DNA from: Promethearchaeota archaeon
GTDB lineage: Archaea; Asgardarchaeota; Lokiarchaeia; Sigyniarchaeales; SOKP01
NCBI GenBank assembly: GCA_019058245.1
Contig: JAHPZJ010000013.1
Span: 329,166 to 393,165 of the forward strand
Reading direction: 5' to 3'
Length of the DNA stretch: 64,000 nt
Positions within the stretch are counted from its first letter, which is position 1, and each line of letters opens with the position of its first letter. Under the pieces are notes generated by a model. It was not told where the DNA came from. It worked only from the letters and a program-made list of their open reading frames with translations, and did no database searches. The translations under genes were made by a program, and so were the position numbers. Below, one piece after another: positions 33,808-41,283 of the stretch.

Positions 33808-34986
33808 CTATCTGATCTTCTTTTTTGAGATAAAAACTCCTATTGCGATAACACTAAGTCCAGCAACACCAGCAATTGGACCGATAATAATCATTGGAAA
33901 TTCCGAGCTACTAATCTCTCCAAGCACAATTCCAATTTTTGGATCATGATAAATATGATTTCCTCGTGGATAGTTGAATAGTAATCTCTGGATTTTATCT
34001 TCTTCTTTTTCAAGTTCAAGTTTATTGGTTAAGACCGGCATTTCAACTCCATCAATCATTGCTGTTTCTTTCCAACTAAAAATTCCTGTATATCCTTCAT
34101 TGTCAGTAAAAATTTCTTTCTCATTTGTAGCTTTTCCAGCTTTTTCATCTTCAGTTTCTTCTTTTTCTTCATAAAAATCCTCGGAAAAGAGTTTTGCGAG
34201 GAGTGCTAATTGAGAATCTTCTTCGATATAATCATAATCAGTAATTTCGATGTCTATTTTAATTTGAGTAGGAGCAACTATATTTCCGTCAAGTATTATA
34301 AATTCCTCTGGAAAATAGATATGAGCTGCAAATACGCCATCTGTTGTATTAATCAAGAAATAATGTAAAAAGCTATCAGTTGAAATGTTTATTCGTTCAT
34401 AAATTACATCTTGAAATGAATTAATCCCATAATCTTCTATAGCTGTATCATTTTCATGCTCAAAAATCCCATTATCATTAAGATCAACATATTCAATCAA
34501 TGCGGGAAATTTCACCTCAAAATTTAATTTTAATTCATGTATCCATTCTTCACAAGTATCCTCATCACCATCTCCACCAGCTATCTCAAGTCCAGATTCA
34601 TCTTCATCTTGAACTGATTCTTCTTCTTCACAATTTACTTTCCTTATAGTTCTAAATGAAACTCTAATATCTAATCCACATTCACTATAACCAATCCTTA
34701 AATCCATGATGTCTTTCTGATCATCAGATCTTTTGATCGAAGCTATTTCAACTACCCCTTCTCCAAACCAAATATCAACATATCTTTTATTTTTTTCTTC
34801 AAAATCATCATCAACACCATCTTCATCAGCATCTTTGGGATTCTCTTCTTTTTCTTCAACTTTTGATTTTTCTTCCTCTTCTTCTCCTTCTTCACCATCA
34901 GCATAAGCTATGTTCATTCCAACACTTACTGTGAATAATAAAATTCCTAAAAAAAACAATCCTATCATATATTGTGTTTTTTTCAT
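33808..34986 (-). CDS. Exported acidic C-terminally anchored surface protein
   Basis: Signal peptide, DADEDGVDDDFEE and DLNDNGIF motifs, HIYHDPKIG, then TM plus KKKIR. Confidence 0.8.
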   Translation of the reverse strand: MKKTQYMIGLFFLGILLFTVSVGMNIAYADGEEGEEEEEKSKVEEKEENPKDADEDGVDDDFEEKNKRYVDIWFGEGVVEIASIKRSDDQKDIMDLRIGYSECGLDIRVSFRTIRKVNCEEEESVQDEDESGLEIAGGDGDEDTCEEWIHELKLNFEVKFPALIEYVDLNDNGIFEHENDTAIEDYGINSFQDVIYERINISTDSFLHYFLINTTDGVFAAHIYFPEEFIILDGNIVAPTQIKIDIEITDYDYIEEDSQLALLAKLFSEDFYEEKEETEDEKAGKATNEKEIFTDNEGYTGIFSWKETAMIDGVEMPVLTNKLELEKEEDKIQRLLFNYPRGNHIYHDPKIGIVLGEISSSEFPMIIIGPIAGVAGLSVIAIGVFISKKKIR

Positions 34987-35349: not shown

Positions 35350-35433
35350 TGGAGCCAGCGGTGGGATTTGCACCCACGATGCTGAAAGCAACGGCTCTGC
35401 AGGCCGCCTCCTTAACTACTAGGATACGCTGGC
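35350..35433 (-). tRNA. tRNA-Cys(GCA) with encoded CCA and a 13-nt variable arm
   Basis: Minus strand reads GCCAGCG TA TCCT-AGTAGTTA-AGGA G GCGGC-CTGCAGA-GCCGT TGCTTTCAGCATC GTGGG-TGCAAAT-CCCAC CGCTGGC T CCA. All four stems pair and the discriminator is U73. Confidence 0.93.
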
Positions 35434-35782: not shown

Positions 35783-36811
35783 ATGAATGATGAAAAACTT
35801 GAAAAAGAGAAACAAACTATAGCTCTTGGATTAATATCGGGGGGATTAGATAGCTTAATTGCTTCTCTTATACTAAAATTACAAGATATTAAAATAATTG
35901 GATTAAATTTTACTTCCCCCTTTTGCCAATATAATATGAATTCTGGTCAAAGAGAATGTAATTTAAAAATATTTAAGGAAAAACTCGGAATACAAATAAA
36001 ATATTTACCTTTTGAAGATGACTTTCTGGAAATTATCAAGAATCCTAAATATGGATATGGAAAACATATTAATCCTTGTATTGACTGTAGGATTTATACT
36101 TTAAGGAAAGCAAAAGAATTTAAAAAAAAAATATCAGCTGATTTTATTTTTACTGGTGAAGTTCTTAATCAAAGACCAAAATCCCAACATATAAATGCGT
36201 TAAAGATCGTTGAAAAAGAATCGGATTTAGAGGATAAGCTTCTAAGACCTTTATCAGCGCTTCATTTGAAACCAACAATTTATGAACAACAAGGATTAAT
36301 TGATCGTACAAAATTATTAGGAATTAAAGGAAGAAGTAGAAAGATACAAATGGAAATAGCTAGAAAGTATGGGATACTGAATAATTATTATGCATGTGGA
36401 GGGTGTTTATTAACAGATGAGCATTTTACCAATCGTATGAATGATTATCTTAAATATAATGATCATCTAAAAATGGAGGATATCCATATCTTAAAAATTG
36501 GTCGTCATTTCCGATATAAGAATACAAAGATTATTGTCGGGAGAAATGAATTAGAAAACAATCAATTAATTACTTTTAAAAAACCAGAAGATTTAATTAT
36601 AGAAGCTAAAGATGTTCCTGGACCAATAACAATTGTACAGGGAAAAATCAATAATGTATCATTAAAATATGCCGCAATGTTAACTTTACGCTATTCTGAT
36701 TTAAACCAATTAAGAGGTTATGTTAAGTACGGAACTGATTATAATAATTTGAATAATACTGTTAGTATTGAACTAGAAAAGGATCTGAATTTAAAAAAAT
36801 ACATTTTATAG
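35783..36811 (+). CDS. PP-loop tRNA sulfurtransferase (ThiI/MnmA-like) with C-terminal DUF814-like domain
   Basis: LISGGLDS, NPCIDCR, TGEVLNQRPKSQ, LLRPLSA, GRSRK, GGCLLTD, GRHFR and IVGRNE. Confidence 0.85.
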   Translation: MNDEKLEKEKQTIALGLISGGLDSLIASLILKLQDIKIIGLNFTSPFCQYNMNSGQRECNLKIFKEKLGIQIKYLPFEDDFLEIIKNPKYGYGKHINPCIDCRIYTLRKAKEFKKKISADFIFTGEVLNQRPKSQHINALKIVEKESDLEDKLLRPLSALHLKPTIYEQQGLIDRTKLLGIKGRSRKIQMEIARKYGILNNYYACGGCLLTDEHFTNRMNDYLKYNDHLKMEDIHILKIGRHFRYKNTKIIVGRNELENNQLITFKKPEDLIIEAKDVPGPITIVQGKINNVSLKYAAMLTLRYSDLNQLRGYVKYGTDYNNLNNTVSIELEKDLNLKKYIL

Positions 36812-36963: not shown

Positions 36964-39900
36964 ATGATTTCCAAAAAGAATAATCAACTTACTAATTTTA
37001 AAAATATTTTTCCCCATTTAATGAAAACAGTAGATGATTTAATCATCATTGTTTCGATGTATAATTCTTATAAAATTGAATATGTTCATAAAAGTAAATA
37101 TTTAAAAAAATTGGGTTATTCAGATGGTACTTTACAAGGAAAGTCTTTATTTGATCTAGTTGATTTCGGAGAAATCACTCCAGAAACCGACATTTTAGGT
37201 ACTTTAAAAAGCAACGGAAATAATATGGAAGTCAAAGTAATCAATAAAAATGGAAACTTAACTTGGGCATTACTAAAATCGTCTATAATCACTGATGAGC
37301 AAGAGCAACAAAAACTTTTACTCGTTTTGAGAGATATTTCAAGAATTAAAGATTTAGAAATAAAATTAGAAGAATCAGAAAAAAAAATAGAAAGAATTTT
37401 AAAAAATGTTCCAGAAAACAGATATGGGGATAAATTTACACATGAGAAATATCATAATGCACTTAAAGAAAGTGAAGTCCTCCTTAAAACAGCAATAGAA
37501 TCTTTACCATTTGATGTATTTATGATTGATAAAAATGGTTTATATGCTATGCAAAACTCAGTTTGTAAGCAACATTGGGGGGATGTTATAGGGAAACGTC
37601 CTAATGAAGTTGCTAATAACCAAAAAACTCTTGAGGTATGGGAAAATAATAATTCAAGAGCATTTTCTGGTGAACTAGTTACTGGTGAAGAGAGTTTTAA
37701 TATAAATGGTAATATTCATCACTTTTACAATATAATAAATCCAGTATATATTAATAACGAAATTCAATATATCTTTGGAATAAATGTTGATATTACAGAA
37801 AAAAAAGATGCAGAACGAAAACTTCAAGAATCTGAAGAAAAGTTCAGAACGATTGCTGAACAATCATTAATGGGAATATGCATTATCCAAGATTTTGTTA
37901 TTAAATATTCAAATCAGCAAATATCTGAAATCTATGGATATTCATTTGAAGAAATTAAGCAATGGAAACCTAAAGAATTATTAAAAGTAATCCACCCCGA
38001 TTCTAGAGATATGGTTGAGAAGTATTTAAAAAGAAAGCAACAGGAATCAGATGAGATAGCAATACACTATATTACAAAAATAATTACTAAAAATGGGAAT
38101 ATCAGGCATATAGAAAATTATTCAAAACCAATAAGATATCAAGGGAAAATAGCGAACTTAATAATGCAGGTTGATATAACAGCTAGAATAAATGCTGAAC
38201 AAAAAATAGATTCTGCTGAAGAAAAATATCGAAGCATTCTCGAAAATATGATGGATGGATATTATGAAACAGATCTAAATGGTAGGTTGCTTTACGCAAA
38301 TGATGAATTTTGTAATATTTTGGGATATTCAAAAGAAGAGTTAATAGGAAAAAATAATCGATCATTTTATGATAATGAGTCAAGAAAAATTTTATTTGAT
38401 ATATTCTCCCAAATTTATAAAACAGGAATTCCTCGTCCTCCCCTAGGATTAATTAAATTGATGACACTTAAGAAGAAGCTTATCTATTTTGAGGGTACAA
38501 TTGATTTATTGTACGATTCTGAAGGAAAAAAAGTTGGATTTTTTGGTCTTGTTCGTGATGTCACACAAAAGAAAATTGCAGAGCAACAATTAAAAGAATC
38601 TGAAGTAAAATATCGACATTTATATGAAAATTCTCCTAATTCGATTATTTTATTTAATTTGAAAGGAGAAATGCTAGATTGTAATTTAATTACAGAATCT
38701 CTTTCTGGTTTTAAAAGAGAAGAATTAATTGAAAAAAAATATAGAAAAGCTAATTTTATCCATAAAGATTATCTTCCAATTCTTTTAGAAGAATTTAAAT
38801 CGCTTTTAAAAAAGAAAATTATGGGACCATTAGAAATTCAACTCTATACAAAAAAAAGGGTGTTAATATGGGCTAATGTCCAAGCATCATTATTTGATTA
38901 TCAGAATGAAAAAATAATTCAAGTTATCATTCAACCTATTGATGATATAAAAAAAGCAGAAGAAAAATTTAGAAATATTACAGAACAATCGTTAATGGGG
39001 ATATTTGTGCTCCAAAATGGTTTCTTTAGATATTTCAATGATAAAATAGTTGAAATTACTGGTTATACGAGAGAGGAAATGAAAAATTGGGTTCCTTATG
39101 AATTTATGAAACTTGTCCATCCTATAAATAAAGAATTTGTGAGAGAACAAGCACGTAAAAAGCAAGTAGGTGATGCTGATGTTATTGATCAATATAACTT
39201 TAGATTAATTAGAAAAGATGATGAAATTAGATGGATTGAAATTCTTTCGAAATCAATTAATTATGAGGGATCTCCAGCAGATTTAGCAATGATATATGAT
39301 ATTACGGATAAAGTTGAGACTCAGAAAAAATTAAAGGAGTCAGAAGAAAAATATCATTATTTATTTAAAACTTCTCCAGAGGGAGTCATTCTAACAGATT
39401 TAAAAGGAACTATAATAGAATGTAATTCTGCGATTAGAAATATAACAGGATATGCTCCAACAGATCTTATAGGAAAAAGATTCATGGAATTTGATCGATA
39501 TCTTGAAAATGGATTAGAAAAATTACTAGAAGGTTATAGCGATTTATTAGAAGGTAATAAATTAAAACCTCTAGAATTTCCAATTAGAAATAAAGATAAT
39601 CAAATTAGATGGGTTGGGATTAGATCTACTCTGATAACTATGAAAGGTCAATCCTATATTCTAGCTATTATACTTGATATAACAATGCAAAAAGAAACAG
39701 AAAACATTATAAAACGAAATGAAAAAAAATTTCGTGATATATTGGAAACCTCATCTGTAGGGGTAGTTGAATTTGATGTTGTTAATAATAGAATTAAGTA
39801 TATTAATCCAAAACTAATGGAGATAATTGGATATACTGAAAATGAATTAATAGATGAGCAATTTTACAATAAAATAATTCACCCAAAAGATTTACGTAAG

Positions 39901-41283
39901 ATTTTGGAATCAGCTAAAGAATCAGAATTAGAATTTAGGATATTCGATAAATATGGGAAGCTAAAATGGTTATCTGGGAAAAAAATTCCTCACTATGATG
40001 ATAATAAACAATTTATTAGTATGAGAATTTGGGTTGAAGATATAACAGAGAAGAAAATCTATGAAAACTTGATATATGAATTAAATATAAATTTTCTAAG
40101 TTTCACTGCTGATATTAAGAATAATATTCAACTACTACTTAGTACATGTTTAAAATTACTTAATGGAGATTTTATCTTATATATTAAAAAAACAGAATAT
40201 GAAAGAGAGGAATCTTATCAAGTATTAACATCTGACAATAAGTCCTTTAATTGTAATGCCGAATTCTTTGCTAGTAATTTGTTTGCTAGTGCATTGTTTT
40301 ATGAATCGCATGATTTTCCTCAAACCTTTTTTGATATAAATAGAATGAGTTTTGCAAATACAGATCCATTCATAGCAAAATATGATTTAAAAGGATGTTT
40401 TGGAAAATTAATTAAATCACAGAATGACCTAGATAGTGCTGTCTGTGTTTTTTATAGAGAAAATCCTGTTATTAGTAATCAAGATAAATTAGTAATGTTT
40501 TTAATATGTGATGCAATTGAAATTGAACAACGGCGTTGGCAAGTTCAAAAAGGTTTAGAAGAACAAAATATCACATTAAACAAAATAAATAATCTTAAAA
40601 CTGAACTTTTTTCAAGAACTTCACATGAGTTAAAAACGCCTCTCATTTCAATCAAGGGTTTTACAGAACTTTTATTAACACTCCATAAACCTAAATTAGA
40701 TAATGAAATTATATCTATTTTAGGAGAAATTAAAGATGGGAGTACTCGTCTTGAAAAAATTATTAATCTATTATTGGAAAGTACAAAATTAGAAGCAGGG
40801 CAATTAGATTTAAATCTATCCAAGGAGGATTTAAGTTTCTTAATTAATTTTTGTGTTAAAGAATTAAAAGGGTTAGCAAAATTACGAGATCAATCTATTA
40901 TTCTTCAATTACATAATAAATTAGAAACACAATTTGATAAAGAAAGGATTTATGAAGTATTTTCTAATTTACTTGTAAATGCTATTAAATATACACCCCC
41001 TGGAGGAATTATTACTATTAAATCAACCATAAACGATGATTTTTATATAATTTCTGTGAAGGATACCGGAATTGGATTCACTAAAGAGGAAAAAGAACAA
41101 GCTTTCAAACAATTTGGAAAGATAGAGAGATATGGACAAGGTTGGGATGTTTCTATTGAAGGAACAGGTCTTGGGCTTTATATTACAAAAAAGTTGGTAG
41201 AATTGCATGGTGGTAAAATTTGGCTTGAATCCAACGGAAGAAATAAGGGTACTACTTTTTATTTCTCTATACCAAAGAAATAA
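36964..41283 (+). CDS. Cytoplasmic multi-PAS (about 8) plus GAF-like sensor histidine kinase
   Basis: Repeated DIT..K...L.ESEEK.R PAS-PAC junctions. H-box SHELKTPL, N-box NLLVNAIKYT, DTGIG and GTGLGL. Confidence 0.95.
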   Translation: MISKKNNQLTNFKNIFPHLMKTVDDLIIIVSMYNSYKIEYVHKSKYLKKLGYSDGTLQGKSLFDLVDFGEITPETDILGTLKSNGNNMEVKVINKNGNLTWALLKSSIITDEQEQQKLLLVLRDISRIKDLEIKLEESEKKIERILKNVPENRYGDKFTHEKYHNALKESEVLLKTAIESLPFDVFMIDKNGLYAMQNSVCKQHWGDVIGKRPNEVANNQKTLEVWENNNSRAFSGELVTGEESFNINGNIHHFYNIINPVYINNEIQYIFGINVDITEKKDAERKLQESEEKFRTIAEQSLMGICIIQDFVIKYSNQQISEIYGYSFEEIKQWKPKELLKVIHPDSRDMVEKYLKRKQQESDEIAIHYITKIITKNGNIRHIENYSKPIRYQGKIANLIMQVDITARINAEQKIDSAEEKYRSILENMMDGYYETDLNGRLLYANDEFCNILGYSKEELIGKNNRSFYDNESRKILFDIFSQIYKTGIPRPPLGLIKLMTLKKKLIYFEGTIDLLYDSEGKKVGFFGLVRDVTQKKIAEQQLKESEVKYRHLYENSPNSIILFNLKGEMLDCNLITESLSGFKREELIEKKYRKANFIHKDYLPILLEEFKSLLKKKIMGPLEIQLYTKKRVLIWANVQASLFDYQNEKIIQVIIQPIDDIKKAEEKFRNITEQSLMGIFVLQNGFFRYFNDKIVEITGYTREEMKNWVPYEFMKLVHPINKEFVREQARKKQVGDADVIDQYNFRLIRKDDEIRWIEILSKSINYEGSPADLAMIYDITDKVETQKKLKESEEKYHYLFKTSPEGVILTDLKGTIIECNSAIRNITGYAPTDLIGKRFMEFDRYLENGLEKLLEGYSDLLEGNKLKPLEFPIRNKDNQIRWVGIRSTLITMKGQSYILAIILDITMQKETENIIKRNEKKFRDILETSSVGVVEFDVVNNRIKYINPKLMEIIGYTENELIDEQFYNKIIHPKDLRKILESAKESELEFRIFDKYGKLKWLSGKKIPHYDDNKQFISMRIWVEDITEKKIYENLIYELNINFLSFTADIKNNIQLLLSTCLKLLNGDFILYIKKTEYEREESYQVLTSDNKSFNCNAEFFASNLFASALFYESHDFPQTFFDINRMSFANTDPFIAKYDLKGCFGKLIKSQNDLDSAVCVFYRENPVISNQDKLVMFLICDAIEIEQRRWQVQKGLEEQNITLNKINNLKTELFSRTSHELKTPLISIKGFTELLLTLHKPKLDNEIISILGEIKDGSTRLEKIINLLLESTKLEAGQLDLNLSKEDLSFLINFCVKELKGLAKLRDQSIILQLHNKLETQFDKERIYEVFSNLLVNAIKYTPPGGIITIKSTINDDFYIISVKDTGIGFTKEEKEQAFKQFGKIERYGQGWDVSIEGTGLGLYITKKLVELHGGKIWLESNGRNKGTTFYFSIPKK

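Follow-up and report, generated by a model that had tools for sequence, protein, structure and literature searches.

A tRNA-Cys(GCA) gene with a class II-type long variable arm was found in the 64,000-nucleotide stretch of Promethearchaeota archaeon DNA analyzed in this work (the window), and it is the only tRNA-Cys gene that could be detected in the assembly. Very probably, the tRNA is charged directly by cysteinyl-tRNA synthetase (CysRS) and belongs to the tRNA-Cys lineage called type A below, its arm being a tolerated insertion that is under selection, in a clade that has lost the enzymes of the phosphoserine (Sep) route together with the canonical tRNA-Cys lineage (type C). In textbooks tRNA-Cys is placed in class I, whereas a long variable arm is taken as the mark of a tRNA for Ser, Leu, Sec or, in bacteria, Tyr.

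The gene is located on the minus strand between positions 35,350 and 35,433 and comprises 84 nt including the encoded CCA (35,350-35,352). It was the one tRNA called in the window by ARAGORN, and a match to the Rfam model RF00005 was obtained at 35,353-35,433 (56.6 bits versus a gathering score of 29, E 1.5e-9). The minimum-energy fold (-33.6 kcal/mol, z -2.55) is a 7/5 cloverleaf with an acceptor stem of 7 bp, a D stem of 4 bp, anticodon and T stems of 5 bp each and an extra stem of 4 bp (UGCU/AGCA). The cysteine identity elements are in place: the anticodon GCA (35,398-35,400), G37 (35,397), G15 and the discriminator U73 (35,353), the last of which is kept in all homologues compared; G1:C72 is also present. 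Instead of the variable loop of 4-5 nt typical of class I, there is a 13-nt extra arm, UGCUUUCAGCAUC (35,378-35,390), which consists of the stem U-G-C-U / A-G-C-A, the loop UUC and a terminal UC. The class I elbow, G18 G19 / U55 C56, is replaced by A18 G19 / G55 C56, with A18 G19 in the D-loop AGUAGUUA (35,413-35,420) and, in the T-loop UGCAAAU (35,366-35,372), a G in place of the near-universal U55, which covaries with position 18 (see below). A long variable arm with a base-paired stem is a class II feature, but the Ser/Leu/Tyr anticodon and the G73 or A73 that accompany it in that class are replaced here by GCA and U73. The 7/5 arrangement and the 4-bp D stem also set the molecule apart from tRNA-Sec and selC* tRNAs, which have 8/4, 8/5 or 9/4 arrangements and a long D stem. 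Most of this structure had been described in an earlier note on this DNA. The 84-nt length, the 7/5 fold and the 13-nt arm with a 4-bp stem given there agree with ARAGORN, Rfam and the computed fold, and the AG in the D-loop, the T-loop TGCAAAT and the retained GCA, U73 and G37 could be read directly from the sequence. Judged from sequence comparison, the class II-shaped tRNA-Cys is real and conserved.

Comparison of 26 distinct homologues, drawn from four genera of the family and a second family, showed the arm helix to be 100% paired at all four pairs. The compensatory changes observed were UA to CG (eight sequences), CG to UA (two) and CG to GC (one); double compensatory changes affect two of the four pairs, and the remaining two vary only to G-U. 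When the partners were shifted by 1-3 columns as a control, just 38-72% of the cells could pair, whereas the true pairing of the arm matches that of the T stem. The variants found among the relatives include UGCCAUUAGGCAUC, UGGCUUCGCCAUC, UGUCGCAAGACAUC, UGCGAAAGCAUC and UGCCGAAAGGUACC, and in some relatives the arm is capped by a GAAA or GCAA (GNRA-type) tetraloop. This covariation indicates that the arm is maintained as a helix by selection and not by chance. Short-loop relatives have UAUUC at the position of the arm, and the rest of the armed tRNA is almost identical to the short-loop tRNA-Cys genes of the same genus. Because the bodies are so similar, the arm is best regarded as an insertion into a tRNA-Cys, and the idea that a class II tRNA was recruited to Cys, which the earlier note had put forward as one of two possibilities, is not supported.

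To look for a second tRNA-Cys, the whole assembly (designated G000; 3.09 Mb, 31 contigs, 29% G+C, 76% complete) was searched. No other GCA tRNA was detected in it by ARAGORN with and without introns, by regex scans or by a relaxed scan for anticodon arms, no GCA anticodon loop was found among the other 18 of the 19 RF00005 hits, and BLAST with three other types of tRNA-Cys did not reveal any further tRNA-Cys. The genomes of the relatives are 3-6 Mb in size. In the entire 3.09 Mb only 19 tRNA hits were obtained, and in most tRNA genes of the genome unusual sites (D arm, anticodon stem, T loop) are interrupted by introns, which explains that ARAGORN run without the intron option recognized only six tRNAs. 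The survey of this genome and its relatives for tRNA-Cys genes, which the earlier note had recommended, thus led to the result that the armed gene is the only tRNA-Cys detected here and that the arm is conserved. Within the genus (54 species) the armed form occurs in about 23 species, and four genomes (G012, G030, G074 and G063) possess the same tRNA body with a 5-nt loop (UAUUC or UAUAC). Sixteen species of the genus have a different tRNA-Cys, designated type B, in which the variable loop is UUAUC, the elbow is C18/U55 and an intron lies at 37/38. None of the 54 species was found to combine type B with the armed form. Identical or nearly identical tRNA genes were present on public 'Promethearchaeota archaeon' contigs, one of them titled Hermodarchaeota, among the matches listed; the pattern scan of contigs was done with an unspecific 16-mer, and the matches listed were mostly due to chance. 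Because the genomes are metagenome-assembled (MAGs), binning errors are possible, and small contigs carrying tRNA genes could be misplaced.

In the 70 tRNA-Cys genes that were parsed, positions 18 and 55 covary without exception, the combinations being A18/G55 (54 genes), C18/U55 (11) and G18/U55 (5). Since A18/G55 is shared by relatives with a short loop and by other families of the order, this elbow must predate the arm and be independent of it. In most type A genes (55 of 70) the D stem is closed by a G13-A22 mismatch, and in the subclade of this genome by U13-A22 (window positions 35,421 and 35,412).

An inventory of the genes that the earlier note had singled out (cysS, sepS, pscS, pstK and serS) showed cysS, SerRS and a PSTK-like gene to be present, and SepRS and SepCysS were not found. 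CysRS is encoded at C31:6014-7441 (TIGR00435, 507.8 bits versus a cut-off of 340), the gene following immediately on ileS in the downstream direction. With the models for SepRS (TIGR00470) and SepCysS (TIGR02539) only weak hits below the cut-off were obtained, the SepRS-model match most likely being PheRS, and this applied to the present genome as well as to 100%-complete long-arm genomes (e.g. G002, G024, G064, G113, G129 and G148), in all of which both enzymes are absent. SerRS, SepSecS (473 bits; C14:82758-84059) and the PSTK-like gene (143 bits, below the cut-off; C31:21017-21769) are encoded, and the genome thus appears to possess the selenocysteine machinery; G012, a relative with the short loop, has the same three genes.

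Against this background, other explanations of the gene can be weighed. The assembly is only 76% complete, and a second tRNA-Cys could conceivably lie in the unassembled 24 per cent. If that were the working tRNA-Cys, the armed gene would be a decaying or unexpressed copy. However, in many relatives that are 97-100% complete no tRNA-Cys other than the armed gene was found, this gene is 92-100% identical between species of two genera, and every stem is fully paired, with compensatory changes, so we regard this explanation as improbable in the extreme. Another way of reducing the molecule to a normal tRNA-Cys would be splicing: the extra nucleotides could form a tiny archaeal intron whose removal leaves a variable loop of 5 nt, and the tRNA genes of this lineage are indeed rich in introns (D loop/arm, 33/34, 37/38, T loop). 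A bulge-helix-bulge intron requires about 11 nt or more. The insert, by comparison with the short-loop form, amounts to 7-9 nt, whereas the introns in homologous genes have 16-46 nt, and it forms a plain hairpin rather than two 3-nt bulges around a 4-bp helix. Taking into account its small size, its plain shape and the GNRA-type tetraloops, which like the covariation are what one would expect of a structural arm, a spliced mini-intron seems very unlikely.

The remaining proposal of the earlier note concerned an indirect route, in which the arm makes the tRNA a substrate of SerRS and Ser-tRNA-Cys is converted, through Sep, to Cys-tRNA-Cys by PSTK and SepCysS; SepSecS could be imagined in place of the latter. 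The layout of the arm (U, stem, loop, stem, UC) is that of the genome's tRNA-Ser, whose arms are 14-15 nt long, and SerRS, the PSTK-like enzyme and SepSecS are all encoded. Nevertheless, this route is not supported. It is left without specific support because its last enzyme, SepCysS, is missing; a bona fide CysRS of the canonical type is present; the selenocysteine genes are found in the short-loop relative as well; and type A genes are physically linked to cysS throughout the family (see below). In addition, U73 argues against serylation, as the earlier note had itself remarked, and the genome's own tRNA-Ser have G73. PSTK and SepSecS read the special fold of tRNA-Sec (PMC2330236), and the 7/5 fold with a 4-bp D stem does not resemble that molecule with its 9/4 fold and long D stem. 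Charging through Ser is therefore, in our opinion, extremely unlikely. The armed tRNA most likely works as a normal cysteine tRNA.

Two kinds of cysS gene, 38% identical, exist in the genus (G000 C31:6014-10220, outside the window; loci L252 and L033), one adjacent to ileS, as in this genome, and the other adjacent to tRNA-Cys, as in most of the family; both are present together in G015 and G020. The CysRS of the clade of this genome is called the 464-type and the tRNA-linked one the 458-type. Each form of CysRS occurs as the sole CysRS in genomes whose sole tRNA-Cys is armed, which argues that CysRS is in general indifferent to the arm. The possibility that the arm co-evolved with a special CysRS was rejected, since armed tRNAs are served by either type and the unarmed type B is likewise served by the 464-type. 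CysRS was not found in 9 of the 54 genomes of the genus. A third charging route was considered for the genomes in which CysRS appeared to be missing (G071, G008, G021, G006 and G016): in G071, G031 and G006 there are breaks or truncations inside the adjacent ileS gene, which points to an assembly problem as the cause of the missing CysRS, an explanation that does not cover G008, G021 and G016. At three loci the ileS gene beside cysS runs off the end of a contig or is truncated, around residues 417-640 (L260, G071 C41; L253, G031 C70; L258, G006 C1:299000-307500), which suggests that a hard-to-assemble element is located inside ileS in these genomes. In addition, G008, G016 and G071 encode a further IleRS-like paralogue of 1048 aa (29% identity).

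Divergently from the tRNA gene, at 35,783-36,811 on the plus strand, lies a gene whose product combines a PP-loop ATPase with an RNA-binding domain, NFACT-R_2 (Pfam PF18297, 66.6 bits; PF02568, 32.8 bits). The earlier note had described it as tRNA sulfurtransferase-like; the divergent PP-loop ATPase is there, but its similarity to ThiI/MnmA is weak (33-35 bits, far under the NCBIfam cut-offs), and the fusion to NFACT-R_2 adds a feature outside that description. A link between this neighbour and the arm was also considered and had to be discarded: in tblastn searches the PP-loop gene adjoined long-arm and short-loop type B tRNA-Cys genes alike, and it is thus not tied to the arm. It is nevertheless a conserved neighbour of tRNA-Cys in the genomes compared. 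In G015 the PP-loop gene is followed by tRNA-Cys and then by cysS. In this genome the place that cysS has in relatives such as G015 is occupied by an ORF of 392 aa (33,808-34,986, minus strand) without any Pfam or NCBIfam match, which is conserved in close relatives and has a paralogue nearby on one contig. On the other side of the PP-loop gene, a sensor histidine kinase of 1439 aa with about eight PAS domains is encoded at 36,964-41,283 (plus strand).

The distribution of tRNA-Cys types was followed through the whole family (135 species, Promethearchaeota MAGs). With a tRNA-Cys covariance model, second tRNA-Cys(GCA) genes with a G18G19/U55 elbow and a 4-5-nt loop were found in G041, G039 and G085, and BLAST of the family with the G085 copy was used to define this canonical lineage, type C. 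It is present in 34 of the 135 genomes, and SepRS and/or SepCysS are encoded in 32 of the 34. Among these are the five species of this genus that have SepRS, without exception, as well as G109 (a partial match of 70 nt at a contig end). The two type C genomes without them are 61% and 68% complete. The BLAST search for type C gave no match in any other Sep-less genome of the family, this genome included. Conversely, type C was detected in just 32 of the 50 Sep-positive genomes. It is thus specific to genomes with the phosphoserine route but not demonstrated in all of them, which leaves the picture of one tRNA per enzyme incomplete.

The odd-elbow (A18:G55) lineage, to which the gene in the window belongs, was designated type A, and the long arm is restricted to it. 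Outside the subclade of this genome, type A shares a contig with cysS in nearly all genomes, mostly at a distance of about 50-300 nt (e.g. G123, G110, G127, G137, G109 and G085). Outside genus g1, cysS was found in 67 of 68 genomes with type A as opposed to 5 of 13 without a type A hit, and in the one type A genome lacking cysS the contig stops just past the tRNA. Four genomes of 95-99% completeness (G096, G114, G144 and G157) possess SepRS and SepCysS, and neither cysS nor type A. The simplest reading of this pattern would be that there are two systems, one in which SepRS/SepCysS use type C and another in which CysRS uses type A (and B). The clade of this genome has lost SepRS, SepCysS and type C, and its one remaining tRNA-Cys is the armed form. 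In the long-arm genome G067, which lacks SepCysS and type C, a 295-aa fragment of SepRS with an in-frame TAG was seen at a contig end (C13:4-870); it may be a decaying gene.

The relationship between the arm and the phosphoserine route was analyzed on a tree of RpoA1, a single protein, obtained by a quick search. Among the family genomes placed on the tree, SepCysS is present in 30 of 49 with a short loop and in none of 45 with a long arm, and SepRS in 29 of 49 and 2 of 45, respectively, counts that are not independent. The state of the arm changes at least 13 times on the tree. When eight independent pairs on well-supported branches were compared, SepCysS and the arm were opposite in 3-5 pairs and the same in none, a result that is not significant in a sign test (median p 0.125, range 0.06-0.25), and SepRS gave no signal in the same phylogeny-aware comparison. 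The association of the arm with loss of SepCysS is thus only suggestive. Strict incompatibility of the arm with SepRS or SepCysS was refuted by a second family (f4), in which three long-arm genomes carry SepCysS and two of these a full-length SepRS, and by the SepRS genes of G085 and G109; the f4 genomes show that the arm is compatible with the phosphoserine route in the same cell. RpoA1 itself was seen to carry an insertion of about 500 residues between HMM positions 448 and 446, or, in other genomes, 1-3 in-frame stop codons (G149 C29, G153 C31, G100 C88, G064, G067, G077, G109, G140, G017 and G150); the insertion looks like an intein.

These data leave some room for an active function of the arm. 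It could be an anti-determinant, possibly together with the A18:G55 elbow, that protects the tRNA against phosphoserylation by SepRS, a class II enzyme, or against entry into the SepCysS/SepCysE complex, so that two insulated tRNA/enzyme pairs can operate side by side; in this genome it would be a relic. SepRS binds the variable-region side of tRNA-Cys, and core and variable-loop nucleotides are minor identity elements for it (PMC2330236, PMC9976931). The co-distribution of two tRNA lineages with two enzymes, the raw SepCysS counts and the canonical second tRNA-Cys in the four long-arm genomes whose SepRS is intact (G085, G109 with its partial copy, G039 and G041) would all be in keeping with insulation. 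On the other hand, most Sep-positive genomes carry a type A with a short loop, so that the arm is not needed for coexistence, and its frequency is highest in genomes that have no SepRS to be kept away from. The Sep-less clade is a mixture of armed and unarmed tRNAs, as the many state changes show, and the phylogeny-aware tests gave no significant support. We therefore consider an anti-determinant role rather doubtful. The general scheme seems to us a little more plausible than this specific role but is still tentative: Loki-type Asgard archaea might run two insulated systems, a canonical tRNA-Cys with SepRS and SepCysS and a remodelled tRNA-Cys with CysRS, arm and elbow providing the insulation, and the lineages that dropped the Sep side might read all their cysteine codons with a class II-shaped tRNA.

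The explanation that we favor, tolerance of the arm by CysRS, can be outlined as follows. The gene would descend from the CysRS-linked type A lineage of Lokiarchaeia, distinct from the Sep-associated type C. A hairpin of 12-14 nt would have been inserted into the variable loop of a type A tRNA and would have been kept as a helix by selection. The canonical CysRS would charge the armed tRNA directly, the arm presumably being retained in the mature molecule, and the tRNA would decode UGU and UGC as cysteine. After the later loss of SepRS, SepCysS and type C, the clade would have had no tRNA-Cys other than the armed one. The two enzymes approach tRNA-Cys from different sides, SepRS by way of the major groove and CysRS by way of the minor groove (PMC2330236), and the arm may be tolerated because the variable region faces away from the side bound by CysRS, a class I synthetase. 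Tolerance of this kind has a precedent in bacteria, in which CysRS cysteinylates a selC* tRNA-Cys of the 8/4 type despite its long V-arm (PMC5389517).

Should CysRS merely disregard the arm, the tRNA would be a well-documented curiosity without a new mechanism. Whole clades of Asgard archaea have a class II-shaped tRNA as their only cysteine tRNA, which bears on the automated typing of tRNAs, on the origin of variable arms and on the constraints that act on them. The main interest lies in its being part of an arrangement of two tRNA-Cys lineages with putative insulation. The co-distribution of lineages and enzymes offers a natural test of insulation at the tRNA level between the direct and the indirect route to cysteine, and the two lineages might provide tRNA/synthetase pairs that are orthogonal to each other and of use in engineering the genetic code.

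In the literature searched, neither an archaeal tRNA-Cys of the 7/5 type with a long arm nor two Asgard tRNA-Cys lineages have been described, and comparison has to be made with systems that share single features. With the canonical archaeal tRNA-Cys(GCA), a class I tRNA, the armed tRNA has in common GCA, U73, G37, G15, G1:C72, the 7/5 fold and a cognate CysRS encoded in the genome, but it differs in having 13 nt with a 4-bp stem instead of a 4-5-nt variable loop and A18:G55 instead of G18:U55. The bacterial selC* tRNA-Cys (Mukai et al. 2017, PMC5389517) likewise combines U73 and GCA with a long arm, and it is charged by CysRS, as the tRNA described here probably is; selC* is a bacterial 8/4 molecule and an extra isoacceptor, whereas the present tRNA is archaeal, of the 7/5 type and the sole tRNA-Cys. 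Division of labor between isoacceptors is known from Methanosarcina mazei, in which the tRNA-Cys isoacceptor preferred by SepRS is not the one that CysRS prefers (Hauenstein and Perona 2008, as cited in PMC8762117 and PMC9976931). The M. mazei isoacceptors are split by route and differ at a few core nucleotides, whereas in Lokiarchaeia the split is deduced from co-distribution and linkage, the lineage linked to CysRS shows an altered elbow and, in many cases, an arm, and the Sep side was lost in the clade of this genome. Class II tRNAs (Ser, Leu and bacterial Tyr) and the V-arm tRNAs of nematodes also have a stem-loop in the variable region, and the genome's own tRNA-Ser share the order of elements of the tRNA-Cys arm, which is 1-2 nt shorter. 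The armed tRNA departs from all of these in its anticodon and discriminator, which are those of a cysteine tRNA, with no sign of charging with Ser or Leu.
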